The notes under the pieces were generated by a model that searched no databases, was not told the origin of the DNA, and saw only the letters and a program-made list of their open reading frames with translations. Positions 22,131 to 44,460 of a DNA stretch of 64,000 nt are shown one piece after another. Each line of letters starts with the position of its first letter. Positions within the stretch are counted from its first letter, which is position 1. A program made the translations under genes and the position numbers. The stretch is from Schmidtea nova (Eukaryota), in contig CM097882.1 in assembly GCA_044892505.1 (NCBI GenBank), forward strand, positions 138,136,001 through 138,200,000, given 5' to 3'.

Positions 22131-22148
22131 GATATCCGGATATATAGT

Positions 22149-22359
22149 AACGGAGGGAATATAGGCCCAGGGTTACAATTGTTGAGTAGCAACGGAGGGA
22201 ATATAGGCCCAGGGTTGCAATTATTTAAAATTAAAGGAAGATAGTAACGGAGGGAATATAAGCCCAGGGTTACAATCGTTTGAGTAGCAACGGAGGGAAT
22301 ATAGGCCCAGGGTTGCAAGTGATAAGAAATAACAACAGAGGGAATATAGGCCCAGAGTT
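22149..22359 (+). repeat. Leader tandem array 3: 5 x AACGGAGGGAATATAGGCCCAGGGTT with variable spacers
   Basis: Copies at 22149, 22191, 22246, 22289 and 22334; higher-order period ~97 bp. Confidence 0.9.
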
Positions 22360-25900: not shown

Positions 25901-28162
25901 TATGAGAAAGGACGAATCTTACGAGGAAATCTAAATTCCATGATAGAACAAATCATCCCACAAATCAAAAAACATAGAAAGGAGTTAATGAGAAGCGAAT
26001 ACGAAAAGTTGAAACGATGTATCGAGTGCATACGTGACACAAGTCACACGAGATGGTCACAGATCTCATACGGAAAAGTAATTGCCAAAATGGGAAAAGC
26101 AATGTTCAGACAAGGGAAAATAACAGATCTAAAAATTTCAGTGGAATTGCCTAATGAGGATACCAAAGAAATTGAAGTGGTAGCAGATTGTACCATAAAA
26201 GAATTAGTAAATGTCATCAACGAGACACTATTACAAAGAGAACCAGAAGAAGAATGGGAGGATGACATAATCATGAAATATAACGAACATGTATTATGGG
26301 ATCACGATGAAAGACGGCTATATAAAATTGGTATATGGGATAATCACCAAACCATCCACGTTATCAGAATGGACGATACACCAAGAGAAACTGCTAAAGA
26401 TGAGAAAAGAGAACGGGAACGACAAAAAGAAGTTGTGCATAAATTACAACAAATAGTAGACATCTATCGAAATTGGCGGATTTGGCCAGAATGGGAAAAT
26501 GTATTAGAGGAACTCAATCTCAACAGACGATTACGAACACCCGTAGAAAAGAAATGGAACGAACGAGGAAAATGTTGGGAACCAAAAGCAGGCGAATACG
26601 AAGAGGAATACGAAATAAGCATAGAAGACGATCACAAACCGGAAACCGGAAGAGTCTGTATGGTAACAAGAAAAGCCATGCCAGCGGATTTAGACGGACC
26701 AGAAACGGCAACCATGTGGTTGGAAAGAGAAAAACAAAAAACGGAAGAATTTGTCGAAATATTAAAAACCAATGCTCATGGCAAGAGAAAATTAGTAAAA
26801 GGTCTCGCAGATTTTTTCGTAGTTAATGGAGAAGACATAACCTGCCTGCGTAAAGTAGCAAAAGCAATCGCCGAATACAAAAGAGTTAACGAGTGGTGTC
26901 CAGAACAATTGGATCAAGTAATTAAAAAATGGAGAAACCAAGAATTCTCGCAGGAATCGCCACAGAAAGTACACCTAAGAATAGTATATCCGAACCAAGA
27001 AAAGGAAGAGTTTTGGGTAGGGATAGCGGAGAAAGTTCGAGACATTAAAAAGAAATTGAGATATGAACCACCATTCCATTTACAACACCAAGGACGATCA
27101 TTAGATAACAGCTTGGAAATTGGAATAACGCCAGCGCAATTAGATATCGCAAATACATTGACAGTGGCAGCAATAGCAGGTCAACCATTGAAATTGAAAG
27201 AGGAAAAGAAATCAAAAGGAAGTATGAGTACGCCGAGCCCAATGAAATCGGTAATGACTCCAGGAACAAGCTCAGAACAAGCTAGAACAACACCAAGAGA
27301 GACAAGAGAAAGAACACCACCAGAACCATACGACGTAGACGAAATTTTTACAGATAGCGATGATATGTTAGAGGAGTTAATAGAGCTAACAAAAGAGAAA
27401 GATGATAATATTTTCGAAAGAATCCAAGAATTACCAACAGCAATACCGGTAACCAACACCGAAGATGAAGTCGAACAAGAAATAATAATAGAAGAAGTAA
27501 ATGAAATAGCAGAAGAGGAAGCAAGGAGGGCAAATGTAGAAAATGTACAATTCACACAAGAAATGGAAAGATGGTTAGAAGAAAGAGCCAATGAACCAAG
27601 AGACGTCACAGAAGAAACTGGACGAGAATCAAGATTAGTAGAAACGGGCACGACAATGGATAAACGACCTAGAGGTAGACCCAAGATAGATCCAGCAAAT
27701 GTAGTTATAAAATCAAGAGAGGAAAAAAGACGGGATCAATGGGATTTGTGTTTAAAGAAACTAAATAAAATAGCCGAAACGAAAGAAAAAGAAACAACAC
27801 AAACATATCAAGGCGAAGAATGGATATCAAAGATGTTAATGGAAATACTGGCAATAATCGATCCGGAATTAAAAAAATGGTGGAGAATAAATGAAATAAG
27901 CGAAAGGGCGAAATCACTGCATAGCGCCATCGCACCAATCCTACCAGAACTAATAAAAGAGAAGACAAGGTCAAACCACCTAGATTGGCAAGGAACCACG
28001 ATGTTGATAAAGAAGTTAACGGAAGGAGCAGAGACGGATAACAAATATTTAATAGCTATGGCATACACCATTTACAATCTGCTGACACTGAGTAGAGGTC
28101 GACTGAAACCCACAGCACTCGAAAGACATATAAAGAATACAGCCAAAATTATAGAGAAATAA
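22910..28162 (+). CDS. gag: Gag with large C-terminal extension (first ATG at 23336): capsid-like core, CCHC knuckles, Q/N repeats, putative ubiquitin-like domains, AT-hook
   Basis: MSEPREEIKDKFSGEPFNGDASKLETFLKEF gag start; knuckles CKTCGKLGHWQQEC and CFNCGRPGHLSRNC plus one degenerate knuckle; KRPRGRPK. The track start at 22910 is TTG. Confidence 0.9.
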   Translation: MRKGEKSVIIKPAEKNKATKNNNQKGLKGSKARQIIIQKSIIENDKLSVTSNSSSNKENQAEPERNPISEIEVDKTNNDYIEEIEDEVEQETESDDTDNDSKASDNESAKETEIDRNSSDEPNSELETRGNESKITTDSGIEMSEPREEIKDKFSGEPFNGDASKLETFLKEFGIFVEVCKWKPETTVSRIQLYLKDSALDLYLEAKNGINPPTSWSAIKDFFQQTFGINKVLNEAFTEFSMRKQKINESNAVYASELKKLAKLIFNQDSPINEELMAAIFVGGLRRPDIRAQVGCQGCKTIDQALETANRFELHMIGNDGRIYLAMDTAQNEQEVNLNNHIPNSQQLNRPPPQRRNEGNKVSNYGNQNNYNPQGPTKQCKTCGKLGHWQQECYQNLNCGKCGVKGHSESRGYTITCFNCGRPGHLSRNCGQRSNQRGNWQNTGNRQNYGNQPTGGNRQNYGNQPNNGNQPEYGNQPNSNNNNQNKNTTKEIHLMQEVQRLTELINNTNRGNQQTGQQQINMMRKIESENEQLNRESQARHAQEWARIQREEEQKQQERERQPLRINMMRATNQTNTHEKETVPEINPTNPNPTNNEGRKEIIQEDEEAEKETEKEVEKEGNQEEKRKLGKRGMMVILPNKHVFRFQYNIKEEVEILFNKVNEMAPGVTKLPREAFLKIEGAPEVKLKLTDTWENMGVVETKRNVMVIKEIEPEGIPSPVRHETRISRIFKGKMIRRRLGEIDELERKMRKVEVVDNKSESTQKAIKSETRPTENTPSETNQIKHINMLRGQAKNFSDDEEDSDVSSLAGDMLDEPEIEDKKIEVVKTPETIQVKEDEIQKLLDNTLEVIYNEEFIDKKHYRKFMRAILQMNYKEWLPGREVETLSQYVGKLLKEPLHEYIILIEIKTCLPRIWIKTPLTEDIYQWVEDRLGSSYKNKFLYSQNGLVKKRTHLIETGIWPGEVTTLSICDDKREENLQEVAKEANMCFEKKIKPRLEYEKGRILRGNLNSMIEQIIPQIKKHRKELMRSEYEKLKRCIECIRDTSHTRWSQISYGKVIAKMGKAMFRQGKITDLKISVELPNEDTKEIEVVADCTIKELVNVINETLLQREPEEEWEDDIIMKYNEHVLWDHDERRLYKIGIWDNHQTIHVIRMDDTPRETAKDEKRERERQKEVVHKLQQIVDIYRNWRIWPEWENVLEELNLNRRLRTPVEKKWNERGKCWEPKAGEYEEEYEISIEDDHKPETGRVCMVTRKAMPADLDGPETATMWLEREKQKTEEFVEILKTNAHGKRKLVKGLADFFVVNGEDITCLRKVAKAIAEYKRVNEWCPEQLDQVIKKWRNQEFSQESPQKVHLRIVYPNQEKEEFWVGIAEKVRDIKKKLRYEPPFHLQHQGRSLDNSLEIGITPAQLDIANTLTVAAIAGQPLKLKEEKKSKGSMSTPSPMKSVMTPGTSSEQARTTPRETRERTPPEPYDVDEIFTDSDDMLEELIELTKEKDDNIFERIQELPTAIPVTNTEDEVEQEIIIEEVNEIAEEEARRANVENVQFTQEMERWLEERANEPRDVTEETGRESRLVETGTTMDKRPRGRPKIDPANVVIKSREEKRRDQWDLCLKKLNKIAETKEKETTQTYQGEEWISKMLMEILAIIDPELKKWWRINEISERAKSLHSAIAPILPELIKEKTRSNHLDWQGTTMLIKKLTEGAETDNKYLIAMAYTIYNLLTLSRGRLKPTALERHIKNTAKIIEK

Positions 28163-28240
28163 ATAGAACCGTACATCATCAGTAAAGGAGGATGGGAAAC
28201 ATTCACAAAAACGAACCAAAAGAAAACCCAAGCCAAAAAT

Positions 28241-31200
28241 ATGAAAAGGAAATTCGAAGAGATATTGGGAGAATTGGAAAAGGAAAAGTCGGGAACAGGA
28301 AACGGGAAATCATCACTAAACTTGAGTTCTATCATTATGATGATGTTAATATGGATGATTAGTACTGACGGAGCAACAGCATTTGAAGTATTCGATTGTG
28401 ATCAAATGGCATTAGGTGAGAAATATTCACTACGAGGGACAGAACAATGTAAGGACGCAACCCCAACGGAGCTAAAAACATTAAAAAAGAGACAATTATA
28501 CCACGTATATCAGGAAGCTGAACTGATAAGAACAATGGTCAGAGAATGCAAAGTTTATAAAACCAGATTTGCTTTTTATTGTGGGCACCGCCATTATTCA
28601 GCAATCGTGATGCCAGGAACGGAAAGAGAATCGGTAATGCTGCAAGGAGAAGACTGTGAAAAATTATTTAAACATGGGGAAGTAGAGACTAGAGATAGAG
28701 TAAAGATAAGAGGAAAAACGGGAGTGATATTGCAACAAACATATTATGTAGCAGGAGCTATTACGGGAGGAGAAGGGTACTGCCAAGGAGCAACATATCC
28801 AATATTCGGAGTAGCAGCAACAAACCTAGTGGTAATAGATACGTATACAGTGGAACTAAAAACGTACGAGGCATTCTTCGATCCAACGACGGGAGAAATG
28901 AAAACTCTACCTATGTGCAAAATCGAGTCAAACACTTGTCAGACTGGTATGTCAACCCTAACCTACCAGATACGAGGAAAGGAATGTCAACTACAACTGT
29001 TAAAGGAAGCAGAATTCGATGAGATACAAGGGAAAACCTTCCAGGAGGAAGAAGAAGACGAGGCAGCAAGAGGAAAAATACTTCAAGACACAGTACGAGG
29101 AGAGAAAAAGATTGAAACACGAACACAAGAAAAGCAAATCAAAATGAGAAATACACCAACGGTACTAATTACCTCAGATGCAGATATCGGAATGAGGTTT
29201 GTAAAAGGAAAAACAGCCTTGAAATGCGGAGTAGCCATGTTGGAAACCAACTACCCCGGCATTTTCGTATCGAAACAAGAAGTACCTAGTGCGAAACGCA
29301 AAGTGCACACGAACGATGTTAAATTACACCTGTACATGAACAATAAAATGGATTTTCTATTCCATAGAGGACAAGCGTCACTACAAAAAGTGTATTACGA
29401 TTTAATTAACAACGATTGCATATTAAATAGGGAAATATTAAAGACAAAATTAGCAGTTGCAATCACAAACCCGGATTGTGCAATGCCATTATTACCATTG
29501 AGAGAAGGTCATTTTGGAAGGGTAGTCGGAGAAGTCATGTATGTATACATATGTAAAAAGACAAATGCGAAGGTAGCGACAATGACAAAATTACAACCAG
29601 GGCAGTGTACTAACGAACTAGAAATCGAATACAAAGGGAAGGTAAGATATGTGCAACCAGTGACAAGAATCATAAATCCAGTAAGCTTCGAACCAAATCC
29701 TTTCAATTGCAGCAACGCATATGGACCACTATACCAAAAACCAGACGGAAATTGGGTTATGTTTCCGTCAAGAACAGAGGTACCAGCACCAAGGGAATTT
29801 GAATTGATGCAACTATCAAAAGGACGAAAATTTAAAGACGTAGATGTAAGTAATATGGGATTCTATAGCGCAAAAGACTTAGAGGCAGCGAGGCAAAACA
29901 TACTATTTCCAGCAAGAAGGGAAGCGGTGCTATCCAGTATTGTAACAATAACAGGAGGAACAAATTACCAAGGTGGACCAAATTACGAATTATTATTGTC
30001 ACCAGCCCACTTTAAGAAGGCAACGGAAAACATGATGAAAGCGATGTGGGGAAGATTTTTAATATTTGGACAAATGATGGCAGGAATACTTGGTGTTATA
30101 CTAATTATACAAATAATACGGGTAATAATAACGCAAATGTTAGCCTGTTTTGACATCTATAAAAGAGAAAAGAAAGTAAATTGGAAATTGGTGGTAGGAT
30201 TCTTACCATTTTTGGCTAAAACAATGGTATTACACGGTCATTCAAAAGATATTCACCGAATAAAGAGACTCCTAAAAATACTGGCAAAAATGAAAGGAAC
30301 CGATGAAGAGGTGGGACGAAAATTTAAAAAGATAATGAATAACGAGCAAGCAAGACAACAACTAAAGAAAGAGAGAAAAGGACTATGGGAAAGAATGAAA
30401 GGGTACAGAACCCAAGACGATTCCAGTGACGACGATGATGATGATAACGAAGGAGGTCAAGTATTTAAAAATCAAGTACCACAGTATGTCGAAAAGAATC
30501 CAGCGGAAATGTGGAAATGTTACGCACCCCCACCAACCATGTACCAAGAACCAACACCAGGGATGAGACAAAATACAATGCAAATGATGCCGATGACAAA
30601 CATATATCCTATGATACCAGAAGACTATAGAACGAGACGGTGCAGAAGCGTAGATCCGCAAGGAGACTCACATACAATTGCAGTAATGTCATCAAACACC
30701 GGTCCAGTATTAACTACAACAATCGAAATTAACGGAAGGGAAATTGAAGCGATGATTGATACAGGAGCAAATATCTCAGCAATAGATATAAAATGGATAC
30801 CACAAGAACAAAGACGGGATATTGAGAGAACCAACGTTCACGTAATAGCATGCAGTAAAGAAGTAGTAGAAGTTGCCGGAAGATGGTGGGTAAAGATAAA
30901 ACATCAAAACACAGAAATCGAAACGTACGTAGCAGTAATACCAGCACTGAGCGTACCATGCATTATAGGCACAGATTTAATGCCAGCATTATTTAAAGAA
31001 ATAGTTATTGACCTCGGAACAATGAGATTAAAGGATAGGACAGGACAGATATGCGCAATAGAAGCAAAAGTAACAAGTTCGAAACAAATAATTGTACCAG
31101 CACGGAGAGAGAAAATATGTTTCGTAAAAATAGATCCTACAATAGAAGGTGATATGATCTTTGAACCCAGTAAAAGATTTGAAAAGAGAAAGTCGTTGCC

Positions 31201-34200
31201 AATGGCAAGGGGATTAGTGAGTGCGAATGACAACGGAGAAATCCCAATAAATGTAGTAAATTTCGATGAAGAGGATAAAATAATTTATGAAAACGAAAGA
31301 CTAGGTAAACTAACTCCAATGATAGATATCGAAATACCAATAAAAGAAGGAGTAAAAGAGGAGGAACCCACTTGGAACATTGATAGCCAACTATTAAATG
31401 AGGACCAAAAAAAACAGCTAGAAAGATTACTGATAGAATATAAAGACATATTCGCAGCATCCGATTTAGATCTAGGGACATGCGACGTCACACTACATAC
31501 GATTCCACTTACAGACGAAACGCCGATTGCGTTAAGACCATACAAGTTAGCTGAAGCGCAAAAATCAGTAGCCGAAGCAGAAGTACAGAAAATGCTAGAC
31601 GCAGAAGTAATTGAACCAAGCTGCTCACCGTGGCAATTCCCAGTTGTAATGGTGAAAAAGAAAGACGGAACACAACGATTTTGTATTGATTATCGGAGAT
31701 TAAATGCGGTAACAAAACGGGATACATACCCATTACCAGACATCAACGAGATGTTATTGACATTACAAGGAGCGGCATACTTTACATCATTAGATTTGAA
31801 AAGCGGATACTGGCAAATTAAAATGAAGGAAGAAGACAAAGAGAAAACTGCTTTCACGATCGGAAGAGACTTGTACCAATTTAGGAAAATGCCATTCGGA
31901 CTAACCAATGCGCCAGCATCATTTCAAAGATGTATGAATTTCGTTACCCACGGCATAAAACAATGCATGGTTTACATTGACGACCTACTGATCTACTCAA
32001 GCACATTTGAACAACACATCCAAGATATCAGAGATGTATTTGTTAGATTGAGACAATGGAAACTCAAGCTCAAACCATCGAAATGCGATTGGGCAAAAGA
32101 GAAAGTGACATTCTTAGGACATATTGTGTCCGCAAAAGGAAAGGAACCAGATCCCAGAAACATTGATAAAGTAAAAGAATGTCCAGTACCAAAGACGATA
32201 ACGCAGATCCAAGAATTTCTCGGATTATGCGGTTACTATAGAAAATTCATAAAGGATTACGCAGGAATTGCAAAACCAATCCAGGAGCTAGTAAAGAAAG
32301 ACGTATCGTTCATATGGGGAAGCGAACAACAAACAGCCTTCGAAACATTACGAGATAAGTTAATAACTGCACCAATATTGGTTCACCCGGATTTCAAGAA
32401 GCCATTTTTACTCGCAACCGACGCAAGTGGATATGCAGCAGGAGCAGTGTTAGGACAATATGATGACGAGGGAAAAGAGCGGGTAATCGGATATTATAGC
32501 AGAACATTCAAGAAACACGAGAAGAATTATTCAGTAACGGAAAGAGAAGCATTGGCAATAATATTAGCAATAAAACACTTTAAATATCTATTATGGGGAC
32601 ACGTTATATGCATAACCACGGATCATCAACCACTGGTATGGCTAGGACAACATAAGGAAACATCCAGCAGGTTGATGAGATGGGCGATGCAATTACAAGA
32701 ATATTCACCAGATATAAAATTCAAATCAGGAAAAGCGAATGCCAACGCAGATTGCATGTCAAGATTAACGTTTCCAGAATTAACAGACCCAGAAGTGCAA
32801 AGAATATGCATAATGATAGCAGAGGATTTGGATTTCAGCGAGTTAAAGAAAGATCAGCAAGAGGATAAAGAACTAAGACCCATCATAGAATTCCTAAGCT
32901 CACGGAATATGGATGTATTCAAAGACAATGCGGAGTTAAAAGAACACATGAGGAAATACCAACATCGATACACAATAGAAAAAGGATGGTTATTAATACA
33001 GGATGGAGAAAAACGATTAATGTGTCTGCCAAGTAATAGACGAAAAGAGATAATAACTCAATACCATGACGGAAAGTTGGGAGGACACATGTCCGATAAG
33101 AAAACATTAGATCGCATGAGACAAAAATATTATTGGCCAACAATGGACGAGGACGTAAAGGAATGGATAAAGAACTGTTTAACTTGTGCCACAAGAAAGG
33201 ATAGTGGGAAGAAATGGAAAAATCCCTTAAAACCCATGCCAATACCAGCGGAACCAATGACTACCATTGCGATGGATGTAATAGGACCATTGCCAGAAAG
33301 TTTAAACTGGAATCAATATATATTGGTAATAACGGATTATTTGACGAAATTCCCTGAAGCATTTGCGATGCCGGATCAAAAAGCAAAGACCGTAGCAAGA
33401 ATTTTAGTAGAGGAAATATGTTGTCGATACGGAACCCCGAAACAAATACTAACAGATCAAGGAACAAATTTTATGAGCGAAATATTAGATGAAGTAACAA
33501 ATTACTTCAGAATAGCCAAATTACGAACGTCACCATATCATCCGCAAACTAATGGACAAACGGAAAGATTTAACGGCACATTGATTCGAATGTTATCCAA
33601 TTATGTAAGCAAACACCAAACAGATTGGGATGAGTACATAAAGCTATGTCTAATGGCATACCGAATGTCGATACACGCAGCAACAAAATTGAGTCCATTT
33701 CAATTAATGTATGGAAGGGAATGCAATATGCCAATAGATCTTGAATATCAACCACCTTTGTCTCAATATATGGAGGAAGATGATTACGTCACCAAATTCA
33801 AAGAACGAATGCAAGAGATATGGAAGACAGCAGAACTAAACATAAAGTTTTACCAAGAAAGTTACAAGGACCTACACGATCAAAAGAAAAATGTTAAAAC
33901 AAATGATCTTAAACCCGGAGATTGGGTAATGATAGAAACCCCAGAAATAATACCAGGAACCGTTAAAAAACTACAAAGACCAGGAAAAGGCCCTTACGAA
34001 GTTATATACAAAAAGGAAAACAATGTGAAGGTAAAACTTGTTAATCGACCATTGATACGACCAATATACGTTAATACATGCAGATGTAAAAAAGTACCAA
34101 AGACAATAACCACAGCGCCAGAAGAACGAATAATAACCAGATCCCAGACAGCCAGAATGAATATGCTCAGAGCAACCAATGAAAGTACCGAAGCAGAAAA

Positions 34201-37200
34201 CAATCAACAAGAAAAAAGAAACAAGGAAATTGTACTAAAAGCCAGGGAAATAATGGGAAAATGGCATGTCAGAGACGATATATTAAGAGATATACAATTG
34301 ATAATTAGTGATTACGCAAGGGGACTACCAACAAAACCAGTCATTTCAGAACTATTGGAGAAAATTCCAGAAATACTTTCACTACAAGACATAGGAGGAC
34401 AACCAGCATTACATAACGCCATAAAATGGGGAGAAGTAGAGAGAGTAAAAGAATTTCTAAAAATCGCTAAGGAAACAAACCAACACCTTGGTTTTGGGAA
34501 TAGCGAACAAGAAACACCATTAATGGTAGCAGCCATCTACAAATCGGATAAAGCAATAATAGACCTTTTGATAAATGCCGATTTCAACTGGACGGAACGC
34601 GATAGAGAAAACAAAACAGTCTTGAATCACGCAATATGGAGCTCAAATCAGATAATGCTCAAACAAATAATCGAGAAGGCCACTTGGGAAATAGACGAAC
34701 TGATCAAAGGTGATATAATCAAGGAGGCAATAAAAATCGGTAACTGCAAAACAATACGCAAGCTAATAAAGTGGAAAAGATCCGAAAATGATACATGGGT
34801 ATTAAATATAAACGAGGTATACAGTGAAGGACAAAACGCGTTATTACAATTCCTATTAAAATTCGTCTGTGATCAGAAAACACTGTTAACGCTATTAGAT
34901 AGAGGAAATATCATAATGTCCAAAAACAAAGAGGAGTGTAAATTCAAAAGTGAAAAAGAAGCATTATTCAGGAATATTAGGGAATGGTGTACAAAATCGC
35001 TAACCAAGACGATAACTTACAAAGATATATCCAATTTTCAAGACAAATACAAAACGGTGGAGGAGGAGTATGACAAACTAATAGACATATTAAACCACCC
35101 CGAAAGATGCAAACAATTCCTATGTCGAAAGGAAAGAGAAAGCAAAAGGAAATTTACACCACTTTTCAGCGCAGAGGTACCTTATCAAGAAAGGTTAGAT
35201 GCGATACAGGACAAAGCAAAAAAACTATTACCAGAATTCGAAAATTCTAAACATACACTGGAGATACTCGGAGCAATTGTGGAAAAGATACACGCATATG
35301 CGGAAGGAACCTACAATGAAAACGATATGATGCTCATAAAAAGAGAAATGCCAGTGACTTTCTTATTAACAAAGAATGGAGTATTGCCAATACATAGAGC
35401 CTTACGAGCAGGAAAAGATAGGAGGGTAGTCGAAATTGCACGGTTGATGCAAGATTGCGGAAGTGACATGAACATGAAAGATAAAAAGGGAGATACCCTC
35501 ATGATATTCGCAGCAAGAGCGAACACAAAAACCCGAGTGTTACAGGAACTGTACGAAGCAGGTGCAGGACTCATGGGAAGAACGAACAAAGACAGCTCAA
35601 TACTAGACGTAGCGTTGTTAACGCACAATTGGGAGGTAATAAACTTTATAAAAACAATCACAAATCAGGAGGAAATAGAATACCTTACAAGGATAGTTAA
35701 AAAAGCTAGCGTACATTCCATGATGCATAACGCTGAACTAACCGAAGCAATACTCAATTGGATGAACCCAAACACCAATGAACCAGCATTCAGGATCAAC
35801 GAGTTCATGGAACAAGGCCAAAATTTGTATATAAAGTGTGCATTAATAATAAACAAATGGCCAAAGATAATAGACATCTTCATGAGAAGAAAAGATTTGC
35901 GATTCACAAACAACCCAAAGGAAACAGAACGTACGGACAAATGGAAAGAACTAATGAAAACGTACCTTAATAATTGGATAAAAGCCAAGAAAGAGATTCT
36001 AGATTGTAAATTAACCGATAAGGAAATACCTAAGCAGGCAGTAACACAAGAATATGAAGCAAGTATACTCACAACCATAACGTATGAAAAAATGATAGAA
36101 GCAATTAATGTCGAGGACGACATTTTCAACGACCAAAGGGGAGGCGACAATACAGGAAACGACGACGATAGTACTCGAGAAAATCCAGAGGATCATGAGT
36201 TATCAGATGAAGAGGACAGTGAAGAGAAAGGAAGGGACACAGAGAAAAATGATAAGAAAAATGAATTTGGGAAACAAAGAAACAACAACTATAAAAATAA
36301 AAACGAAGCAAAAAGAACAAGCTACAAACAAACAATAAATCCATTCTTTAAACCAGAACTATTATTACTAACGGTAATCATGACCTTAATTAGTCCCACT
36401 CAAGGAATGATATGTGAAGAAAGAACGACAATACAAATTGGAAACGCAAAAGGAATCGAACGAGTATGTTGGTCAAAAAAGGACAAAATATCGGGACAAA
36501 ATAGTCCAATGGATTGCAGGATCTCAGAATACGAACAAGAAATCATAGAGATCGATGACCTAGAGCTAGATACTTGGTACAGAATGTGCACCGTTCGGAA
36601 ACCAAAGGATCCGAGATCACATAAGACAATTGCATGTGCAAACTACCTAACACCCAAAATAACCATAACAGTACAGCAGACATCCAAAGGAGACTACGCC
36701 GTAGGAAAGTGTGGAAAAACAGAGACCCAAGGAACAAAAAACAAAAAACCCCAGACAATAGATAGACGAACAACGCCAACTATACGAATTACCATAGACA
36801 GGCCCGAAGCAAGAGTAACCACAAATGAAACCAAAAGAGTGACCTACCAAACAGAATTACTATGTTTAGCACTCATATTAACAATGTTAAAACGGTTAGA
36901 AGAAGGGATAGACATTGACACAATGGCAGTAACAGAGATGAACGACACCCAAAACACCAACCCAAAGTGTTGGGCCAGAAGCAACGAAGAAATTGGCGTA
37001 AGCGAAATAAAGACGAGTCGGAAAAGGAAAACAAATAAAGTAACCAAGATATCAGAAGTAAAAGCAGACAGGACGTATGAACTATGTTTACTAGAAAAAG
37101 AAAGACACAAGAAAGGAACGACAATTTGTAAAACATTTCAACCTGGGGAAACAATAAAGTTCATAAGACGAGGAAGAAAAAATATACGCACCAAACGGAG

Positions 37201-38299
37201 AACAACTATAATGTTAGAGTTAACCGGGATAGAACCGGACGTCAAAGGCGTATGCTGGAAGAAGCAGGAAAAGAAAACAAACCAGAATACACCGCCGCAA
37301 TGTCGAACAAACAGAGGAACAACCACAATACAGATAGAAGGGTTAGAAAGTAATCAAACGTACGAAATATGCCTGATCAGGAAGAGCGACAAAATAACAG
37401 TAAATGAACTGGAATGCAAAATATATAAAACACCCAGCAGAACAAGAATTGGAAAGACAACGCGAAAAAGCAGAAGACAACGGAACAAAGGAAAAGCGAG
37501 GTATACCACTACTTTTGAACCTAATGGACAACAGAAAAACCAAGAAATACAAATAAGAACCGAAAAGAATACTACAGCAACTCTTATACTATGGAGAATA
37601 GACAATAAAACGTTAGAAATATGTTGGGCAGTAGTTCAGGAACAAAAAGAAAGACAGCCACGATCCTGCGAAAACGTAAAAGGAAAAGAAGAAATGAGTA
37701 TCAAAAATCTGAAATTTAATAGAGAATACGAGATATGTGCGGTAGAAAAGACGGACATATTGGGAAATCAGCAGGAAAGATGCGAAACGTACTACACACC
37801 GGTAAACTCAACGTCCAAAGGGAAAGTGAGAAAACTCGAATTTAAAGAATTAAGTCAGACAACGAAACAAATGGACGCAGAACAAGTAGTAATAGACCCT
37901 TACGCAAGATGGACGCCGGAAGAAGTAATTAAAGAAGTTAAAAGAAAACAACAAGAACGAGAACAACTACTAAATAAACTAAAGGGACAATACGGACCAA
38001 TGATTAACCAGAGTGAAATTACGAAGATGGACGTAAACAAACAAGTTAGAGAACTAATTGGTCTAGGAATACTAGCAGCAACTATTCCAGTAATAACAGT
38101 ATTATTAATAATATGGATATATGATGTATTCAACAAGAAACCAATAACACATTGGCCAGATATAAAAATTATGAACTACAGAATAGAATTACCGGAAGAA
38201 GTACAGAAAGAATTTCAAAGGAGGACGAAAGGCAAGGAATTTTGGAGACAAATAGAAGATGAGGAGCGATACGAAGGAAAGACAGTGATGGTGATATAG
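28241..38299 (+). CDS. pol: 3352-aa polyprotein: Env-like glycoprotein, protease, RT, RNase H, integrase, ankyrin repeats, FN3-like type I membrane protein
   Basis: MIDTGAN (30758), YIDD (31973), LLATDASG, HDGKLGGH...CLTC, MDVIGPLP/TDQGT/NGQTERFN, GKGPY, ankyrin motifs, and several hydrophobic segments. Confidence 0.95.
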   Translation: MKRKFEEILGELEKEKSGTGNGKSSLNLSSIIMMMLIWMISTDGATAFEVFDCDQMALGEKYSLRGTEQCKDATPTELKTLKKRQLYHVYQEAELIRTMVRECKVYKTRFAFYCGHRHYSAIVMPGTERESVMLQGEDCEKLFKHGEVETRDRVKIRGKTGVILQQTYYVAGAITGGEGYCQGATYPIFGVAATNLVVIDTYTVELKTYEAFFDPTTGEMKTLPMCKIESNTCQTGMSTLTYQIRGKECQLQLLKEAEFDEIQGKTFQEEEEDEAARGKILQDTVRGEKKIETRTQEKQIKMRNTPTVLITSDADIGMRFVKGKTALKCGVAMLETNYPGIFVSKQEVPSAKRKVHTNDVKLHLYMNNKMDFLFHRGQASLQKVYYDLINNDCILNREILKTKLAVAITNPDCAMPLLPLREGHFGRVVGEVMYVYICKKTNAKVATMTKLQPGQCTNELEIEYKGKVRYVQPVTRIINPVSFEPNPFNCSNAYGPLYQKPDGNWVMFPSRTEVPAPREFELMQLSKGRKFKDVDVSNMGFYSAKDLEAARQNILFPARREAVLSSIVTITGGTNYQGGPNYELLLSPAHFKKATENMMKAMWGRFLIFGQMMAGILGVILIIQIIRVIITQMLACFDIYKREKKVNWKLVVGFLPFLAKTMVLHGHSKDIHRIKRLLKILAKMKGTDEEVGRKFKKIMNNEQARQQLKKERKGLWERMKGYRTQDDSSDDDDDDNEGGQVFKNQVPQYVEKNPAEMWKCYAPPPTMYQEPTPGMRQNTMQMMPMTNIYPMIPEDYRTRRCRSVDPQGDSHTIAVMSSNTGPVLTTTIEINGREIEAMIDTGANISAIDIKWIPQEQRRDIERTNVHVIACSKEVVEVAGRWWVKIKHQNTEIETYVAVIPALSVPCIIGTDLMPALFKEIVIDLGTMRLKDRTGQICAIEAKVTSSKQIIVPARREKICFVKIDPTIEGDMIFEPSKRFEKRKSLPMARGLVSANDNGEIPINVVNFDEEDKIIYENERLGKLTPMIDIEIPIKEGVKEEEPTWNIDSQLLNEDQKKQLERLLIEYKDIFAASDLDLGTCDVTLHTIPLTDETPIALRPYKLAEAQKSVAEAEVQKMLDAEVIEPSCSPWQFPVVMVKKKDGTQRFCIDYRRLNAVTKRDTYPLPDINEMLLTLQGAAYFTSLDLKSGYWQIKMKEEDKEKTAFTIGRDLYQFRKMPFGLTNAPASFQRCMNFVTHGIKQCMVYIDDLLIYSSTFEQHIQDIRDVFVRLRQWKLKLKPSKCDWAKEKVTFLGHIVSAKGKEPDPRNIDKVKECPVPKTITQIQEFLGLCGYYRKFIKDYAGIAKPIQELVKKDVSFIWGSEQQTAFETLRDKLITAPILVHPDFKKPFLLATDASGYAAGAVLGQYDDEGKERVIGYYSRTFKKHEKNYSVTEREALAIILAIKHFKYLLWGHVICITTDHQPLVWLGQHKETSSRLMRWAMQLQEYSPDIKFKSGKANANADCMSRLTFPELTDPEVQRICIMIAEDLDFSELKKDQQEDKELRPIIEFLSSRNMDVFKDNAELKEHMRKYQHRYTIEKGWLLIQDGEKRLMCLPSNRRKEIITQYHDGKLGGHMSDKKTLDRMRQKYYWPTMDEDVKEWIKNCLTCATRKDSGKKWKNPLKPMPIPAEPMTTIAMDVIGPLPESLNWNQYILVITDYLTKFPEAFAMPDQKAKTVARILVEEICCRYGTPKQILTDQGTNFMSEILDEVTNYFRIAKLRTSPYHPQTNGQTERFNGTLIRMLSNYVSKHQTDWDEYIKLCLMAYRMSIHAATKLSPFQLMYGRECNMPIDLEYQPPLSQYMEEDDYVTKFKERMQEIWKTAELNIKFYQESYKDLHDQKKNVKTNDLKPGDWVMIETPEIIPGTVKKLQRPGKGPYEVIYKKENNVKVKLVNRPLIRPIYVNTCRCKKVPKTITTAPEERIITRSQTARMNMLRATNESTEAENNQQEKRNKEIVLKAREIMGKWHVRDDILRDIQLIISDYARGLPTKPVISELLEKIPEILSLQDIGGQPALHNAIKWGEVERVKEFLKIAKETNQHLGFGNSEQETPLMVAAIYKSDKAIIDLLINADFNWTERDRENKTVLNHAIWSSNQIMLKQIIEKATWEIDELIKGDIIKEAIKIGNCKTIRKLIKWKRSENDTWVLNINEVYSEGQNALLQFLLKFVCDQKTLLTLLDRGNIIMSKNKEECKFKSEKEALFRNIREWCTKSLTKTITYKDISNFQDKYKTVEEEYDKLIDILNHPERCKQFLCRKERESKRKFTPLFSAEVPYQERLDAIQDKAKKLLPEFENSKHTLEILGAIVEKIHAYAEGTYNENDMMLIKREMPVTFLLTKNGVLPIHRALRAGKDRRVVEIARLMQDCGSDMNMKDKKGDTLMIFAARANTKTRVLQELYEAGAGLMGRTNKDSSILDVALLTHNWEVINFIKTITNQEEIEYLTRIVKKASVHSMMHNAELTEAILNWMNPNTNEPAFRINEFMEQGQNLYIKCALIINKWPKIIDIFMRRKDLRFTNNPKETERTDKWKELMKTYLNNWIKAKKEILDCKLTDKEIPKQAVTQEYEASILTTITYEKMIEAINVEDDIFNDQRGGDNTGNDDDSTRENPEDHELSDEEDSEEKGRDTEKNDKKNEFGKQRNNNYKNKNEAKRTSYKQTINPFFKPELLLLTVIMTLISPTQGMICEERTTIQIGNAKGIERVCWSKKDKISGQNSPMDCRISEYEQEIIEIDDLELDTWYRMCTVRKPKDPRSHKTIACANYLTPKITITVQQTSKGDYAVGKCGKTETQGTKNKKPQTIDRRTTPTIRITIDRPEARVTTNETKRVTYQTELLCLALILTMLKRLEEGIDIDTMAVTEMNDTQNTNPKCWARSNEEIGVSEIKTSRKRKTNKVTKISEVKADRTYELCLLEKERHKKGTTICKTFQPGETIKFIRRGRKNIRTKRRTTIMLELTGIEPDVKGVCWKKQEKKTNQNTPPQCRTNRGTTTIQIEGLESNQTYEICLIRKSDKITVNELECKIYKTPSRTRIGKTTRKSRRQRNKGKARYTTTFEPNGQQKNQEIQIRTEKNTTATLILWRIDNKTLEICWAVVQEQKERQPRSCENVKGKEEMSIKNLKFNREYEICAVEKTDILGNQQERCETYYTPVNSTSKGKVRKLEFKELSQTTKQMDAEQVVIDPYARWTPEEVIKEVKRKQQEREQLLNKLKGQYGPMINQSEITKMDVNKQVRELIGLGILAATIPVITVLLIIWIYDVFNKKPITHWPDIKIMNYRIELPEEVQKEFQRRTKGKEFWRQIEDEERYEGKTVMVI
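28331..30231 (+). other. Env-like domain: chuvirus/Monjiviricetes-type fusion glycoprotein with signal-like and transmembrane segments
   Basis: IIMMMLIWMI...ATA|FEVFDC; YSL...C; ECKV...R...YCG..HYS; AG...G.G.C.G..Y; CG...ETNYP; LYMNNKMDF; C...REILKTKL; GEVMYVYIC; CTNEL; ILFPARREAVL; TM FLIFGQMMAGILGVILIIQII. Motif and Cys order recognised by eye. Confidence 0.75.
34390..35660 (+). other. Ankyrin-repeat region downstream of integrase
   Basis: GQPALHNAIKWGE, ETPLMVAAIY, KTVLNHAIW, VLPIHRALRAG, GDTLMIFAARAN, SSILDVALLTHN. Confidence 0.8.
36353..38130 (+). other. C-terminal membrane protein: signal-like segment, four Cys-containing FN3-like repeats, TM anchor
   Basis: PELLLLTVIMTLISPTQG; four repeats of the form xCW...(C)...I..L....Y.(I/L/M)C...C; TM LIGLGILAATIPVITVLLIIWIY. 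Confidence 0.65.
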
Positions 38300-38781: not shown

Positions 38782-38872
38782 ATAAATAAAGCGAAAAATT
38801 GTAAATATGTAAAAACAAAAACAAGAAAAATCAAAAAATAGATAACAAATCAAGTGTATATATCATTGTAGA

Positions 38873-40256
38873 ATGAATACAGAAGGAAAAGCCGAAGAGC
38901 GGATAATCGAAATTTTGAGAGCCGAGAACAGGAAATGGAGTCAGAGACTCACTTGTGTAAATTGTAAAAACATAATATTGAAACCAAGACAAACCCTATG
39001 CGGATGCAGAGTATGTACCAAATGCATACACGAGTTAAGTATGAAAAGACCACCAGAATGTCCAGAATGCAAAGAAGGACAAATAAAATTCGAAGAAACC
39101 GGACCAGATAGAGCAACTCAGAGAGAAATCATGAACACGAAAACCGAATGTATAAATCAACCATGTATATGGCAAGGACAAATACGCGATCTCGAGAACC
39201 ATCTGGAGAACTGCGAAGAGAAGAGAACTGAATGTAACAAATGCCAACAAAAAATAACTATAAAGAATAAAGAGCAGCACAAAGATGAATGTAAAGAAGA
39301 GGAAAGTCTATGCGAATATTGTGGAACTCGAGAAACGAGGAGAAAGATCGAAGAAGAACACCTGAATGTAAAAGAGGAGAAAGTATGTAGACAATATGTA
39401 GGAATATGTTCAAACGAATGCGAGATAACGGTAGAAGTAAAATTACAAGAACATTGGAAAGTGTGCACGGAGAAACCAAGGGAATGTCCTTATAACAAAC
39501 AGGGATGTATGGAGAAAAGAACGCAAAAAAACCATGAAACAACATCTGGAGGAAGCATTGCTAAAGCATGCGGAAATGACAAACGAAGCAACAAAAGAAA
39601 CCGAACAAACAATCAAAAAATTAGAAAGAGAAATAGAGTCACACAAGATAATGGTAAACCTACTGTTGGAAACCAGAGAGCAATTCGAACTAACACGAGA
39701 AAAGATGGAGGAAAAGATAAAAGCTATCGAAGAATTGGCTAAAGGAATGAAAATCCAGTACAACAAACTCACCCAGGATACCGAGGAAAAGTTGCCAATC
39801 GCACCCTATGTGTGGAAAGTGACAGATTTTAGAGACAAATTAACAGAGGCCAGAAATATGACGAAAACAGCAGTAATAAGCCCACCATTTTATTTATGGA
39901 GAAACGGAGCTAAAGTGAGATTGAAGCTATACCCAAATGGAGACGGAAGAGGACGAGGAACACATGTGTCAATATTTTTCTCGCTATGTAAAAGAGAATA
40001 CGACGACCTAGTAGAATGGCCCTTGAAAGTAGGAGTCATTATAAGAATCAGAAGTGTAGCAAAACCAGTGGAAAAATTCTTTGAGACAGAGAAACATGCG
40101 AGTACGAGCGAGAAACCAACCACAGAATGTGGATTAGCAGCGGGAGAACCGATGTTTATAACGAAAGAAAGCTTATGGGAACGATTATATGCAGACACCC
40201 TATACATAGAAATGGAAAGGAATGAGAAAGCGGATAGAAAAGGATGGTTGACGTAA
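38873..40256 (+). CDS. TRAF: Intronless TRAF-family protein (RING, TRAF Zn fingers, coiled coil, MATH) with one frameshift in an A7 run
   Basis: CVNC...CGCRVCTKC...CPEC RING; ECINQPCIWQG...LENHLENC Zn fingers; YVWKVTDF...SPPFY...KLYPNGDGRGRGTHVSIFF...YDDLVEWP MATH. Removing one A from 39525-39531 joins the two ORFs as EKRTQKTMKQHLEE. Confidence 0.9.
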
Positions 40257-40372: not shown

Positions 40373-41434
40373 ATGGGAAATATCGAAGTATGCTTACAGG
40401 AAATTACGATGCATCAAGCAGAAGCGATTAGCGATCATCTAGAACAGATCGAAATATGGGTCAATGCATATTATAGAAAGCAAGAGGAGATAGAGAGACA
40501 AGCCGAATTATTAAAAGAAGCGGAAAGATCAAGTCAAAGAAGTCGAGAAAAAATAGAAGAAGTATACAAAATGCTAAAACAACAAAAGGAATATTACCAG
40601 GGAATGATGAAAGAGCGACGAGAGGAAAGAGACAGACAGCAGATGGAAGCTGAACACAAGATGTATTCGATTACAGAACAAGCAAGATACTGGAAGAAAG
40701 AAGCGAAAGAATCTTACGAAAAAGCTAGAGAAATAATAGAAAGGACAGCTTATAGTGATGACTGGAAATTATATAAAGAGATCGACGAATTAAAAGACGA
40801 ATTAGAGAAAAAAATCAACCAGGAAGTGTTAAATAAAAGATGGAATACAAAAAGACAGCAATTTATCCGCGAACAAGCAAAGAAAATTAAAGGACTAACC
40901 TATCAAGTTCAAAGAATGGGAGAAGAACTAGCTAATCAAGAACAACTGAAAACTATGCTCACCGGAATATGGAATCAGAAAGAAGAAGAGATGAAGAGAG
41001 ATATAAATGGTTATCAAGGAGTGATTACCCAGAAGAAAATAGAGCTAAAAAGAACCAGAGAAAGGTTAAAGGAAGAGAAACAAAGTTATGAGGAAAATTT
41101 AACGAATTTGATGAAAGAAAACGAAGAATTGAAACAGAAACGAGTAACAGTATCAGTAATACCCAAAGAAGCAAGTATAACGGCAGCCGTAACAAAAATG
41201 ATGAAGGAAGACGAACAAAAGACAAAAGTAATCGAATTAGAGAAGCAAATAGAAACATTAACAGAACAAGCAAATTACCTAGAATATTTGCTGGACGAGG
41301 AGATCCAGATATCTCACATGTATCGAGATGAAGTCGAAATGTGGAGGAGCAGGGTTGTTTGGATACCACTCCCCACGAACCAGGTAGAACCTCAGGACGA
41401 AGGTTTCTACGAACCAAACGAGACGATGGTGTAA
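40373..41434 (+). CDS. Long coiled-coil (SMC/myosin-tail-like composition) accessory protein (353 aa)
   Basis: E/K/Q/R-rich heptads; polypyrimidine tract plus TAG acceptor-like site 2 nt before the ATG. Confidence 0.7.
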   Translation: MGNIEVCLQEITMHQAEAISDHLEQIEIWVNAYYRKQEEIERQAELLKEAERSSQRSREKIEEVYKMLKQQKEYYQGMMKERREERDRQQMEAEHKMYSITEQARYWKKEAKESYEKAREIIERTAYSDDWKLYKEIDELKDELEKKINQEVLNKRWNTKRQQFIREQAKKIKGLTYQVQRMGEELANQEQLKTMLTGIWNQKEEEMKRDINGYQGVITQKKIELKRTRERLKEEKQSYEENLTNLMKENEELKQKRVTVSVIPKEASITAAVTKMMKEDEQKTKVIELEKQIETLTEQANYLEYLLDEEIQISHMYRDEVEMWRSRVVWIPLPTNQVEPQDEGFYEPNETMV

Positions 41435-41516
41435 ATAAAGCGGAAAATATATTTTTGTAAATAATTGTATGAAATGTAGTGTCAAATTGTATTGATCTAT
41501 CTGTAAAGAAAACAGT

Positions 41517-42089
41517 ATGAAAAAGCTCAGAATACCGATATTCCTATACCTAATAACAATCACCCTACAAAGAGAAGATCTTCAACTCACAGAGAAGGAG
41601 CTACGAGCCCTACCCGAGAAAACCTATCAAGAACTAGATAAACTAATCAGCGAAGCAACACAAGAAATCACCCAACTTCAACAGATAACATCAGACAACC
41701 CAAACGATGAAAAATTTCAACAGGTCCTATATGAACATCGAATCAAATTGAAAACAATCAGAAAAACCCTAATAGAAGGTCGAGAACCCATAAAAAGCTT
41801 AGCCCAAGCAGAGATAGAATATCAAGAAAAATGGATCATCGCAATTATAATAATCCTTGCACTCAGCGTGACCATTATCGCGATCACAATCCTCATAACA
41901 TCATACCGAGTGAAGATCCTAAAACAAAAACAAGTCATCCTGAATCGAACAACAATACAAGACATCAGAACCCAAAAGCGAATGAGAAAACACCTAAACC
42001 GAATCCAAAGCCACTATGAACTACGAACAATCAGCGAAAGAACCCCAATCCAATCCAATACCAATCATGAAATCAAAGAGCTTGTGTAA
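41517..42089 (+). CDS. Small membrane protein: N-terminal hydrophobic segment, coiled coil, TM, basic tail (190 aa)
   Basis: MKKLRIPIFLYLITITLQ; TM WIIAIIIILALSVTIIAITILI; CAG 1 nt before the ATG. Confidence 0.75.
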   Translation: MKKLRIPIFLYLITITLQREDLQLTEKELRALPEKTYQELDKLISEATQEITQLQQITSDNPNDEKFQQVLYEHRIKLKTIRKTLIEGREPIKSLAQAEIEYQEKWIIAIIIILALSVTIIAITILITSYRVKILKQKQVILNRTTIQDIRTQKRMRKHLNRIQSHYELRTISERTPIQSNTNHEIKELV

Positions 42090-43671
42090 AACTGATAAAT
42101 TACATTCACTTTATGTATGATCCACGTACAATTAACAATAATATGACTTTGTGCTTACGTATAAAATCTATCACCTTATGTGATTCTATGTGTACATGTA
42201 AATTGACATTTATCTGCTTAATTTTTATGTATGATGATATAGGTGTAAATGTATAATTAATTGCTGGACGCAATTTTAGGGGTCCCCGAGTGATGTTGGG
42301 CCAGCCAAATAGAGGGAACAGTGAAATAAAAGTAGATTAATTAAAACAAAAAAGAGAAAAATAAGGTAAAAAGGGGAATATTTATTTATTAAAAGAAAGG
42401 AATAATATAGTAAAAATATAGATAAACTAAGTACAAGCTATAAATAAAAATAAATGAATTGCTAGATATTAACGGGCCCAGGAGACATCTAAAAACAAAT
42501 AAAATACAAATAATAATAATTAAAACCAAATAAAAGTACTTGTTATTGAATAATTGTTTTTGAAACCCGGACCTCCAAGGAAGAATACAATCTAAAAAAT
42601 AAAAATTAATTAGAATCAAAAACAATAATTAAAAACCACCATGAAGCTGGCCGAACCTGATTGGTCGGTCTAGACACGACTGATCAGTATAAATACTGAT
42701 CAGATTTTTCATAAAAAGAGAATAGAGACGTTGTTAGACTGTGTAAAAACTTAGACTTTGTTAGAATATAGATTTTAGACTTGTGACTTTGTTTGAGACA
42801 AAAATTTAGACTTGTGTTCAGACTAAAAATTTACATTAGATTGCACATTGCCCCGACGACGATCACCGTTTAGACCGATTTTGATCAATAAATTTTCAGA
42901 ATTCAATTGAGGTATTCTTGGTATATTTACGTTTATTGTTTGATATCGTTGTATTCATATGTCATTATCATATTATAATTTATTAGTTATCTCATTATGA
43001 TTTATGTTATATTTAAACTATTTAAACTATCATATTAATCTTGCGCCGTTGGGAGCTTTAGGTTCCCAAGGTGTCCGTCCGTGGCGTGGTGCTCGAGGGC
43101 TCCACACACGGTAAAGTAATAAATAACAAAACATAATTTTATTAGTGATGGTTGAGATTTGCACATGGGACACCCAACAAATCCGGGGAATTATTTTCTG
43201 ATCGTTTTGGCTACGGAGGGGACGATAATTTTTTGATAAAGCTTAAAGATATGAAAGAATTTGTTAACCGGGAGGAGGCACAATTTTTCACCCTCACCAC
43301 AGCGCAGCTGTTTAATAAACGTCTAATAAACCTTAGGAAAATTATGTCGACCGCATTTGATACAAAAGAGCGTTTTCGAATAAGCTAGGGATACATGACG
43401 TGAGAGAGCTTCCGTTTTGAGGTATCAATATTTTGAAAATCCAAGCAGACAAATCACCAATTCTTCGACTATAAAATTGATCGTAAACAGATAAATCTAA
43501 GTAGATACGAGAGTAATGTATACCGTAACAAGCAACAGTTTTTTCTTGATTTCAGCTAAGGTCTAAGGGGAAGGCAAATAATAAGGGTATCACGATGAGA
43601 GATAACATTTACTATGATTAATTATTGATGTAAATTGTAACTATTATCAAATTCAGCATCGTTTTGGAATC

Positions 43672-44139
43672 ATGACTAAGCATAGATACACTATCAAAAA
43701 ACGACAAGAACGAGCCCGAGTTAGCCCATTAAAGCCGGCTCCTTTCGAGATTTTACAGCAAATCCATCAAAAAATGTGGGCATGGCGCCGAGAGCTTGAA
43801 ACCGCCTGTCCATTTACATTATGGGACCATCCACGGCACCACGTATGGTACCGGGGATGCGCTAGTTGGCCAATTATTCCAGACGAGGAATGCGAATCAT
43901 GGCACGCCGCCTGGTTCGTCCTGATGTTGGATAAGGGAGGATTCCCGAAATGTGTGATATATTGGGGGTTCATTCCAGCCTCTACCTTCAAGGAATTGGG
44001 GTTCAAGTTCAATACCGCAATACGACCCCTTCGAGAAGCTGAGAGGATCCGTTTTCAGCAGGCCTCGTCCAATATCAACACAAATTTGCAAATCAGATCG
44101 ATATTTTCATATCGAGGAAAAATGACCGAAGATGAATAG
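43672..44139 (+). CDS. Second copy of LTR-encoded 155-aa protein
   Basis: Identical to 18440..18907. Confidence 0.6.
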   Translation: MTKHRYTIKKRQERARVSPLKPAPFEILQQIHQKMWAWRRELETACPFTLWDHPRHHVWYRGCASWPIIPDEECESWHAAWFVLMLDKGGFPKCVIYWGFIPASTFKELGFKFNTAIRPLREAERIRFQQASSNINTNLQIRSIFSYRGKMTEDE

Positions 44140-44460
44140 TTGAATCAATGGCCACATGTTTTTTTTAATTTAATAAATGTTTTAAAAAAGGTCTGAAGTG
44201 TCTCATTTTGTTAATAGTGTTGTCATGTAGATTTAGTATTCTAGTTGTTATAGTCATTAGGAAATTCATTTAATAATCTCAAACTAGTTCAATAAATCCT
44301 TTGAGCCTTCAATAAATAGATAGTTAATTAATTTTGCAACAAACTTAATAATTAAAAACATTAGTATGCATCTCGTTTAATGATAGTAAATAATAGACTA
44401 AATAAAATAACATTGTTGACAGGTCCTCCAGCGAATTTATCGTTATAATATTCAGACAAC

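Follow-up and report, generated by a model that had tools for sequence, protein, structure and literature searches.

The polyprotein frame of a giant Gypsy element in Schmidtea nova ends in 648 codons that encode a conserved module which, judging from its sequence, is likely a type I glycoprotein freed by signal peptidase. The module occupies positions 36353–38299 (+) of the window, a stretch of 64,000 nucleotides of contig CM097882.1, and corresponds to residues 2731–3378 of a 3,378-codon frame. It lies at the other end of Pol from the class III-type fusion glycoprotein of the element. We propose, with a probability of about 0.4, that the module helps this fusogen in attachment or cell contact. 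The role was chosen because the module would be made in a 1:1 ratio with Env and Gag, recurs in five families and has been duplicated as a unit. Cell choice and entry by env-bearing retrotransposons are described as open questions for nearly all lineages in the part of PMC13524379 drawn on here, and effects of Burro elements on planarian stem cells have been reported. The module is a concrete candidate for a fusogen partner or a host-cell surface modulator that would be produced in equal amounts with the fusogen.

The host element and its coding frames

The element spans 16163–45605 (+), or 29.4 kb, and is bounded by two LTR-containing direct repeats of 4,211 nt (16163–20373 and 41395–45605, both +). 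The repeats are 99.93% identical to each other, and the insertion is therefore young. Four contig runs of unspecified kind cover the region and have no joint in common. Two long frames, 22877–28162 and 28163–38299, lie in the same phase and are separated by a single stop; the second is open over its whole length. Of the 68 copies of the module scored in the genome, 34 sit in frames of at least 5,000 aa (exactly 5,140 aa in 24), and so the stop at 28162 is a defect of this copy. The first frame is the Gag-side part of the polyprotein, with zinc knuckles recognized by Pfam, and ends at this premature stop. The second contains Env at 28322–30118 (+), with an internal signal-like segment (28322–28366), the ectodomain of a class III-type fusion glycoprotein (Pfam Monjiviricetes_fusion, E 9e-68) and a transmembrane (TM) segment placed by hydrophobicity (30056–30118). 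Protease, reverse transcriptase, RNase H and integrase (PR, RT, RH and IN) follow at 30716–33544 (+; Pfam RVP, RVT_1, RT_RNaseH, Integrase_H2C2 and rve). Three stretches of ankyrin repeats come next, the best at 34409–34678 (+; Ank_2, E 3e-13) and the others downstream of it. The polyprotein order is Gag-Env-PR-RT-RH-IN-ankyrin-module, in one frame in many copies. Beyond the frame lies a TRAF-like accessory gene with zinc fingers and a MATH domain (38846–40256, +; MATH_2, E 5e-21), which is divided between two overlapping frames in this copy and is a single 476-aa frame in copies of family E. Inspection by eye pointed to a putative IAP-type RING at 20698–21162, and no Bcl-2 match was obtained in this element copy.

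By layout and size, the element is assigned to the Burro-type giant Gypsy elements. Like Burro and GYPSM1 (PMC6431247), it measures about 30 kb, with roughly 4-kb LTRs, a single very long frame and a TRAF/MATH accessory gene; its env lies between gag and pol in a frame of about 5,000 aa, and its cargo includes ankyrin and MATH/TRAF domains. The available part of PMC6431247 reports an env that lies in frame between gag and pol, together with ankyrins, TRAF and, in one element, an ORF of 5,140 aa, the length most often found among intact frames here (24 of 68). By that account, no more than about half of the Burro protein is taken up by known domains; the part used for this comparison, made by description, names no C-terminal signal, FN3 repeat or TM segment. 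About 650 Burro residues with no assigned domain there are now annotated. The IAP of Burro1 and its expression are treated in PMC13465017 and PMC8532177, both drawn on in part.

The Platyhelminthes GAG-ENV-POL errantiviruses (PMC13524379) are alike in having a class III-type, HSV/gB-type Env before Pol. They differ in that a single surface protein per element is described, as far as the available text goes. The words 'fibronectin', 'Burro' and 'ankyrin' have 0 occurrences in its main text. The kind of element, which the original prediction did not recognize as a published one, and the env-before-pol order are already known from the parts of PMC6431247 and PMC13524379 used here. A C-terminal membrane or FN3 module is named in neither of these parts, nor was one found in the literature searched, which covers Burro1 incompletely.

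Architecture of the C-terminal module and fold of its repeats

An acidic low-complexity linker, followed by the basic n-region of the signal-like segment (36116–36358, +), leads into the module. The internal signal-like segment itself (36359–36406, +) has a 12-residue h-region (36359–36394), then T-Q-G, with small residues at −3 and −1 and a predicted signal-peptidase site after 36406. Across aligned modules, the predicted −1 position is small in 7 of 7 and the −3 position in 5 of 7, and the n-, h- and c-regions are retained across families as a sequence pattern. Repeat 1 lies at 36401–36658. A second signal-like hydrophobic stretch of 11 residues with an invariant Cys, recognized by hydrophobicity and alignment and here called H2, is found at 36857–36889, ahead of repeat 2 (36902–37150), whose alignment lacks the Cys of strand C'. 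Repeats 3 and 4 follow at 37187–37438 and 37526–37804. A stalk (37805–38053) contains a predicted helix (37910–37996) flanked by two position-conserved N-glycosylation sequons. The TM helix (38054–38122) has 23 residues and a Kyte–Doolittle 19-mer value of 2.65, and the tail (38123–38299), with hydrophobic residues at its end, runs to the stop codon; all these features are on the + strand. The original prediction of a signal-like segment, four repeats, a TM segment and a short tail was confirmed, with a tail of 58 aa and repeat scores above those of 1000 shuffles. With a net charge of +34, the ectodomain is strongly basic, which is unusual for a secreted domain. The tail is better conserved than the ectodomain, with 70% identity between this family (A) and family C and 54% between A and E, compared to 53% and 39% for the whole module.

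The repeats are mutually homologous. With its own repeat class left out of the profile, each scored 35.9–54.3 bits (40.2 bits for repeat 1, 35.9 for repeat 2 and 54.3 for repeat 3), the register being taken from an alignment that still included the left-out class. Maximal scores were 10.6–15.5 bits in 1000 shuffles and 16.3–24.0 bits in 1000 shuffles with Cys and Trp held fixed, and in all eight tests the real score was reached by 0 of 1000 shuffles. Three Cys/Trp columns are invariant across the 31 aligned repeats. At the DNA level the repeats could not be aligned with each other, the best self-match being 29 nt. Pfam found 0 families on the whole module. Applied to the rows of the repeat alignment, Pfam fn3 matched 4 of 31 (best E 0.075), with repeat 4 at E 0.19 and 12.4 bits, below the curated cut-off of 25 bits. 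The repeats would accordingly be a diverged subtype of the FN3 fold, outside Pfam fn3.

An AlphaFold2 (AF2) model of repeat 4, built with the 31-row repeat alignment, showed six strands at a pLDDT of 87.5, strand A being outside the modelled cut. Foldseek against the PDB gave FN3 domains as the top matches to this model (probability about 1.0, TM-score at most 0.68), with a best E of 0.031 and no match at E 0.001. The top 50 of 48,161 chains compared by VIA-align were FN3 domains, FN3 scaffolds or FN3-containing receptors (Z 8.2–6.7, a Z near 8 being middling), as judged from chain titles, of which a few do not mention FN3 explicitly; the best match had Z 8.2 and an rmsd of 2.8 with 76 aligned. 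In the ESM Atlas, repeat 4 fell among fn3 clusters (0.93), and the shared features numbered 162, a little short of the usual 170. Although each of these methods is weak to moderate, they agree on FN3 and support an FN3 sandwich as the modelled fold of repeat 4, the most canonical of the four. A single-sequence AF2 prediction of the 630-aa whole module reached a pLDDT of 36 and was discarded. The original claim of four FN3-like repeats is borne out by AF2, Foldseek, VIA-align and Atlas for repeat 4, while for repeats 1–3 an FN3 fold is supported at sequence level by homology to the other repeats only.

The tryptophan of the CW motif had been read as the first residue of the FN3 hallmark W...L.P.T.Y. 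This reading did not hold. The W of CW aligns to FN3 strand C, both in the alignment with contactin-4 and in GVCW repeats. The strand-B Trp, the E–F loop Leu and the strand-F Tyr occur together in repeat 4, and repeats 1–3 retain Leu/Val and Tyr and lack the strand-B Trp.

When the repeat profile was compared to 1.84 billion proteins, 59 matches were obtained at E ≤0.001 and none at 1e-10. Pfam fn3 was present in 38 of the 40 best matches that were scanned from these 59. The 14 best resemble bacterial surface proteins with GVCW repeats and have a low score per repeat; another is a tick PTPRQ-like receptor (P0017) with the same Cys pair between strands F and G. No retroelement was found among all 59 by an RT-motif check. 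Word-index searches with the module among proteins of similar length, with the long-protein region, and with the repeat alignment among longer proteins gave no outside homologue in collections from which planarian repeats may be absent. The FN3 domains of receptor tyrosine phosphatases (P0017, PTPRQ-like) and Fn3_ELFN (PF22986) share with the repeats a Y-x-[IV]-C strand F and a second Cys in strand G, as well as a tandem array before a TM segment. In contrast to them, the module has an extra pair of CW and C' Cys residues, a strand-B Trp in repeat 4 only, and no phosphatase, LRR or Ig part. Fn3_ELFN matched 3 of 31 repeat rows (best E 0.066). As for a host donor, a genome search with Fn3_ELFN gave only 4 sub-threshold places, and the repeat profile did not exceed 7.7 bits at any of 34 loci, which were these 4 and a set of 30 drawn from the 92 host fn3 matches. 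Viral attachment proteins had no sequence or fold link to the module (BFVD best E 0.03, generic sandwiches).

A decoy cytokine receptor, one of the roles first suggested, received no specific support. Cytokine-receptor chains appeared only among generic FN3 matches, Pfam Interfer-bind matched 1 of 31 repeat rows, and the module sequence contains no motif like the WSxWS hallmark. Moreover, a membrane anchor and a conserved tail suit a soluble decoy poorly. The other suggested role, a receptor-binding partner of the fusogen, would be plausible.

Conservation across copies and families

Purifying selection acts on the module. Its pN/pS is 0.28 among 30 close copies, all of which (30/30) have the same Cys and Trp residues; 63 of 68 scored copies have no stop within the module. 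Compared to families B, C and E, dN/dS is 0.22, 0.24 and 0.29, values that are rough at a dS of 0.85–1.87. Each of the four repeats has a dN/dS of 0.12–0.28 in the A–B comparison, while H2 is at 0.06–0.26 and the linkers are near neutrality (0.35–0.89).

Four families of this genome retain the module, their relations being taken from pairwise identities and not from an RT tree. In family B, with frames near 5,685 aa, the module is 69% identical and is followed in frame by a second signal-to-TM unit with three repeats and about 34% identity. At least 150 places match this second unit (150 of 150 scored), and we count the in-frame doubling as evidence for a unit of function. Identity is 53% for the module of family C; of five C-like copies fetched, three have no in-frame RT-RH-IN and still keep it, and Env was also seen in two C-like stretches (L033/L034). 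In family E, the module was present in 4 of 4 fetched copies and is 39% identical, while RT-RH-IN is 89% identical. The ankyrin region is about as diverged as the module (44% versus 39% identity), and therefore the speed of divergence alone says nothing on receptor binding.

Family D has an RT that is 51% identical, frames of 3,393–3,401 aa, no ankyrins and 113 matches; it resembles the size class of the errantiviruses in the available text of PMC13524379, whose elements are about 12–18 kb. Its C-terminus consists of a signal, a 321-aa ectodomain with 8 sequons, a TM segment and a 25-aa tail ending in E-T-F-V, and has no H2. This ectodomain could not be aligned to the repeats (hhalign probability 0.2%), had no Pfam FN3 match and was negative in the PDB profile comparison; an Atlas value of 0.85 with low recognition gives only a weak FN3/Ig lead. 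No MATH match was found in the two downstream ORFs of family D that were scanned. A genome search with Ank_2 returned short frames only and no new long family. All five env-type families examined, which comprise env-bearing families only, have the signal-ectodomain-TM ending. The arrangement that the original prediction called highly unusual, with a membrane-protein module on either side of Pol, is supported by sequence and conserved across families.

Possible roles and membrane topology

Gag, Env, Pol, the ankyrins and the module share one frame and would therefore be made 1:1. After the TM segment of Env, the chain would stay cytosolic through PR-RT-RH-IN-ankyrin until the internal signal of the module re-opened translocation. 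H2, as a short duplicate of the signal, would enter the lumen, and the four repeats would become disulfide-bonded and glycosylated outside the cell. Signal peptidase would release Env and the module, so that Pol and the ankyrins would form a cytosolic loop between two membrane proteins, an unusual polyprotein topology. A protease-type motif recurs near aa 838, 962, 1547 and 1998, and at the last of these the viral protease may free integrase. No such motif was found between the ankyrins and the signal; the ankyrin part would therefore stay membrane-tethered by the signal remnant. Protease sites within the repeats were considered and rejected, the one match to the motif expression being in strand F of repeat 4, where the fold explains it. 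The weakest step of this scheme is that the module would travel with Env to the surface of the cell or particle. Equally weak are the steps by which the FN3 array would bind a host surface ligand and the conserved tail would bind Gag or trafficking factors.

Class III fusogens often need a partner. Herpesvirus gB acts with gD and gH/gL, and paramyxovirus F with HN/H/G, while alpha- and flaviviruses use internal signals to release glycoproteins from a polyprotein. The element resembles such two-component entry systems in having a fusogen and a separate surface protein, here predicted from sequence. We tentatively suggest, as a fuller form of the attachment-helper reading that we hold to be less probable than that reading itself, a two-component entry machine in flatworm Gag-Env-Pol retrotransposons: signal peptidase would cut from one polyprotein a gB-like fusogen located before Pol and a distinct FN3 attachment protein located behind it, and the FN3 module would be the replaceable and duplicable part that determines the choice of cell. 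Two-component entry with an FN3 attachment protein is described for no LTR retrotransposon in the literature searched, part of which was available in excerpt.

A close runner-up to the attachment helper is a protein of the same type I topology that would work on the surface of the element-carrying host cell, as a receptor mimic, an adhesion protein or a block to superinfection, with a tail that recruits adaptors such as the element's TRAF. This is possible, if somewhat doubtful. The TRAF-like gene lies directly downstream, and Burro carries IAP, BCL2 and TRAF cargo in the available part of PMC6431247; the Burro1 IAP is reported, second-hand in the part of PMC13465017 drawn on, to protect stem cells. 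Given the many host-modulating cargoes of Burro elements, a role at the cell surface fits no less well. The conservation of the tail above that of the ectodomain points the same way, as do the E-T-F-V of family D, an ending of the class I PDZ type, and the three copies that keep the module in frame without RT-RH-IN. However, the module is locked 1:1 to Gag and Env, whereas TRAF is a separate accessory gene, and the tails share P-x-E and have no full TRAF-binding consensus. In family D, the layout recurs with another tail, of 25 aa, and neither of the two downstream ORFs that were scanned matched MATH.

Both of these roles place the ectodomain on the surface, and it is quite probable that all four repeats are outside the cell. 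Module Cys residues are kept 18/18 in family B and 16/18 in family C, compared to 5/9 and 3/9 in the ankyrin region. The two Cys absent from family C vanish together and are also absent from the second unit of family B. The Cys count is even in 9 of 12 modules; family E is odd, with 17. An outside location also agrees with the Cys pair of strands F and G, which is found in the FN3 of an animal receptor phosphatase (P0017). Sequons occur at −83/−80 and −16/−13 from the TM segment in 10 of 10 four-repeat modules, and in the one after repeat 4 the middle residue varies though the sequon is kept; the sequon total is within chance (7 versus 4.4, p 0.14). The tail of this copy has no sequon and no Cys. 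K+R residues are more abundant after than before the TM segment in 4 of 6 modules, although the TM segment of this copy shows no positive-inside bias, with 3 before it and 2 after.

The main doubt about topology is H2, a near-twin of the signal segment that could stop transfer. An extra hydrophobic stretch between repeats 1 and 2 had been noticed in the original prediction. The stretch is there, yet it is not merely extra: in family E it nearly duplicates the h-region of the signal. H2 is likely a copy of the signal segment, and its sequence points to a unit of signal plus FN3 that was duplicated long ago. Were H2 to stop transfer, only repeat 1 would be luminal, repeats 2–4 would be cytosolic, the last helix would be inverted and the protein would pass the membrane twice. 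Such a split arrangement is rather improbable. It draws on the uncharged run of H2 (11 residues, versus 12 in the signal), on the K-R that directly follows H2 in 12 of 12 aligned rows, on purifying selection on H2 (dN/dS 0.06–0.26) and on the basic composition of the module. There is also precedent in the experiments excerpted from PMC2174215, in which a second signal more than 60 residues onward acted as a stop-transfer sequence; the spacer ahead of H2 is about 155 residues. Against it are the Cys pairs and the position-conserved sequons in repeats 3–4 and the stalk, a tail without either, and the K+R bias after the last TM segment in 4 of 6 modules. Furthermore, H2 reaches only 1.18 on the 19-mer hydropathy scale in this copy (1.83 in family E), and family D has a plain signal-ectodomain-TM layout without H2. 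In the part of PMC2114505 consulted, a second cleavable signal was passed through uncleaved. An interior signal behind a long chain failed to start insertion in the same work, and this calls for caution about the first signal of the module, which the acidic linker may free. One guess is that the Cys of H2 pairs with the unpaired CW Cys of repeat 2. Cys counts fit this in families A, B and C, not in E, where the signal segment also has that Cys; a complex prediction of H2 with repeat 2, in which alignments were not used, scored 0.02 and speaks neither for nor against.

An assembly role is less likely still. Here the signal and TM segments would tether the far end of the Pol-ankyrin precursor, the tail would sort with Env and the FN3 array would be a folded spacer. 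Hydrophobic segments do bound Pol at both ends, two lineages share the layout with ectodomains that cannot be aligned, and no protease-type motif separates the ankyrins from the signal. However, a signal alone would suffice as a tether. A spacer also accounts poorly for purifying selection on all four repeats (dN/dS 0.12–0.28, A–B) and for the second, diverged ectodomain retained in at least 150 matches of family B.

A captured block of host exons carried as a functionless passenger, a reading to which the near-neutral linkers (dN/dS 0.35–0.89) and the failure of the above searches to find a host donor or outside homologue would be congenial, is largely refuted by the 30/30 invariance of Cys and Trp among close copies and by a module dN/dS of 0.22–0.29, with frames that have stayed open across four families while synonymous sites became saturated in places.

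Variation in the FN3 module and in Pol

Copies of family A, to which the window element belongs, fall into two sub-types by repeat 4 of the FN3 module (window 37556–37816), which are ~97% versus ~88% identical to the window copy. Both pN and pS are elevated in this repeat, and there is little difference between copies in the module outside it. Together, these features hint that repeat 4 alone recombined.

In family B, a second signal-FN3x3-TM unit lies in tandem with the first, to which it is ~34% identical (genomic stretches L031:7201–8718, L032, L038 and L041). The conserved tail is present in these stretches only after the last TM. From the tandem unit and the position of the tail, the family B polyprotein is predicted to give rise to two different surface proteins.

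Three family C copies (L033, L034 and L035) lack RT-RNase H-integrase through an in-frame deletion. Despite this loss, all three retain the protease, the ankyrins and the FN3 module; RT/IN is retained in copies L039 and L040.

The C-terminus and neighbouring frames of family D

The C-terminus of the distant, env-type family D is ordered as signal, 321-aa ectodomain, TM and tail (L048:2–1789, L050:2–1528, L052, L059 and L061). The last residues of the tail are E-T-F-V, a PDZ-type ending. A weak Bcl-2-like match lies upstream of the fusion glycoprotein Env, and an ORF of 467–483 aa, for which a Pfam scan returned no significant match, lies downstream of the C-terminal module.

Accessory ORFs, long repeats and flanking sequence

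A TRAF-like gene occupies two overlapping frames in the window copy (38846–40256). The gene is found as a single 476-aa frame at many genomic places, directly 3' of the family E module at 4/4 fetched places. Between the 5' repeat and gag, an ORF at 20698–21162 ends in an IAP-type RING pattern, recognised by eye. A PBS-like run follows the 5' repeat (~20379), and the leader ahead of gag carries three short tandem arrays (21638–22377; units of 30–31, 40–41 and 42–55 nt).

The shared long repeat starts ~30–50 nt ahead of the first TG candidates (16163–16210 and 41395–41430), so that a purine-rich lead-in is common to the 5' copy too. This shared lead-in possibly reflects a tandem or recombined origin. 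An LTR-internal ORF at 41496–42089 (and 16552–16857) encodes a hydrophobic helix, is basic towards the C-side, and has no noteworthy Pfam match; other LTR-internal ORFs lie at 43618–44139 and 44449–45045.

Outside the element, the window holds two LTR-like repeat pairs (619–1608/5174–6170 and 52980–53903/58541–59457) and a near-perfect palindrome of 387 nt (6739–7125) that adjoins an N stretch.
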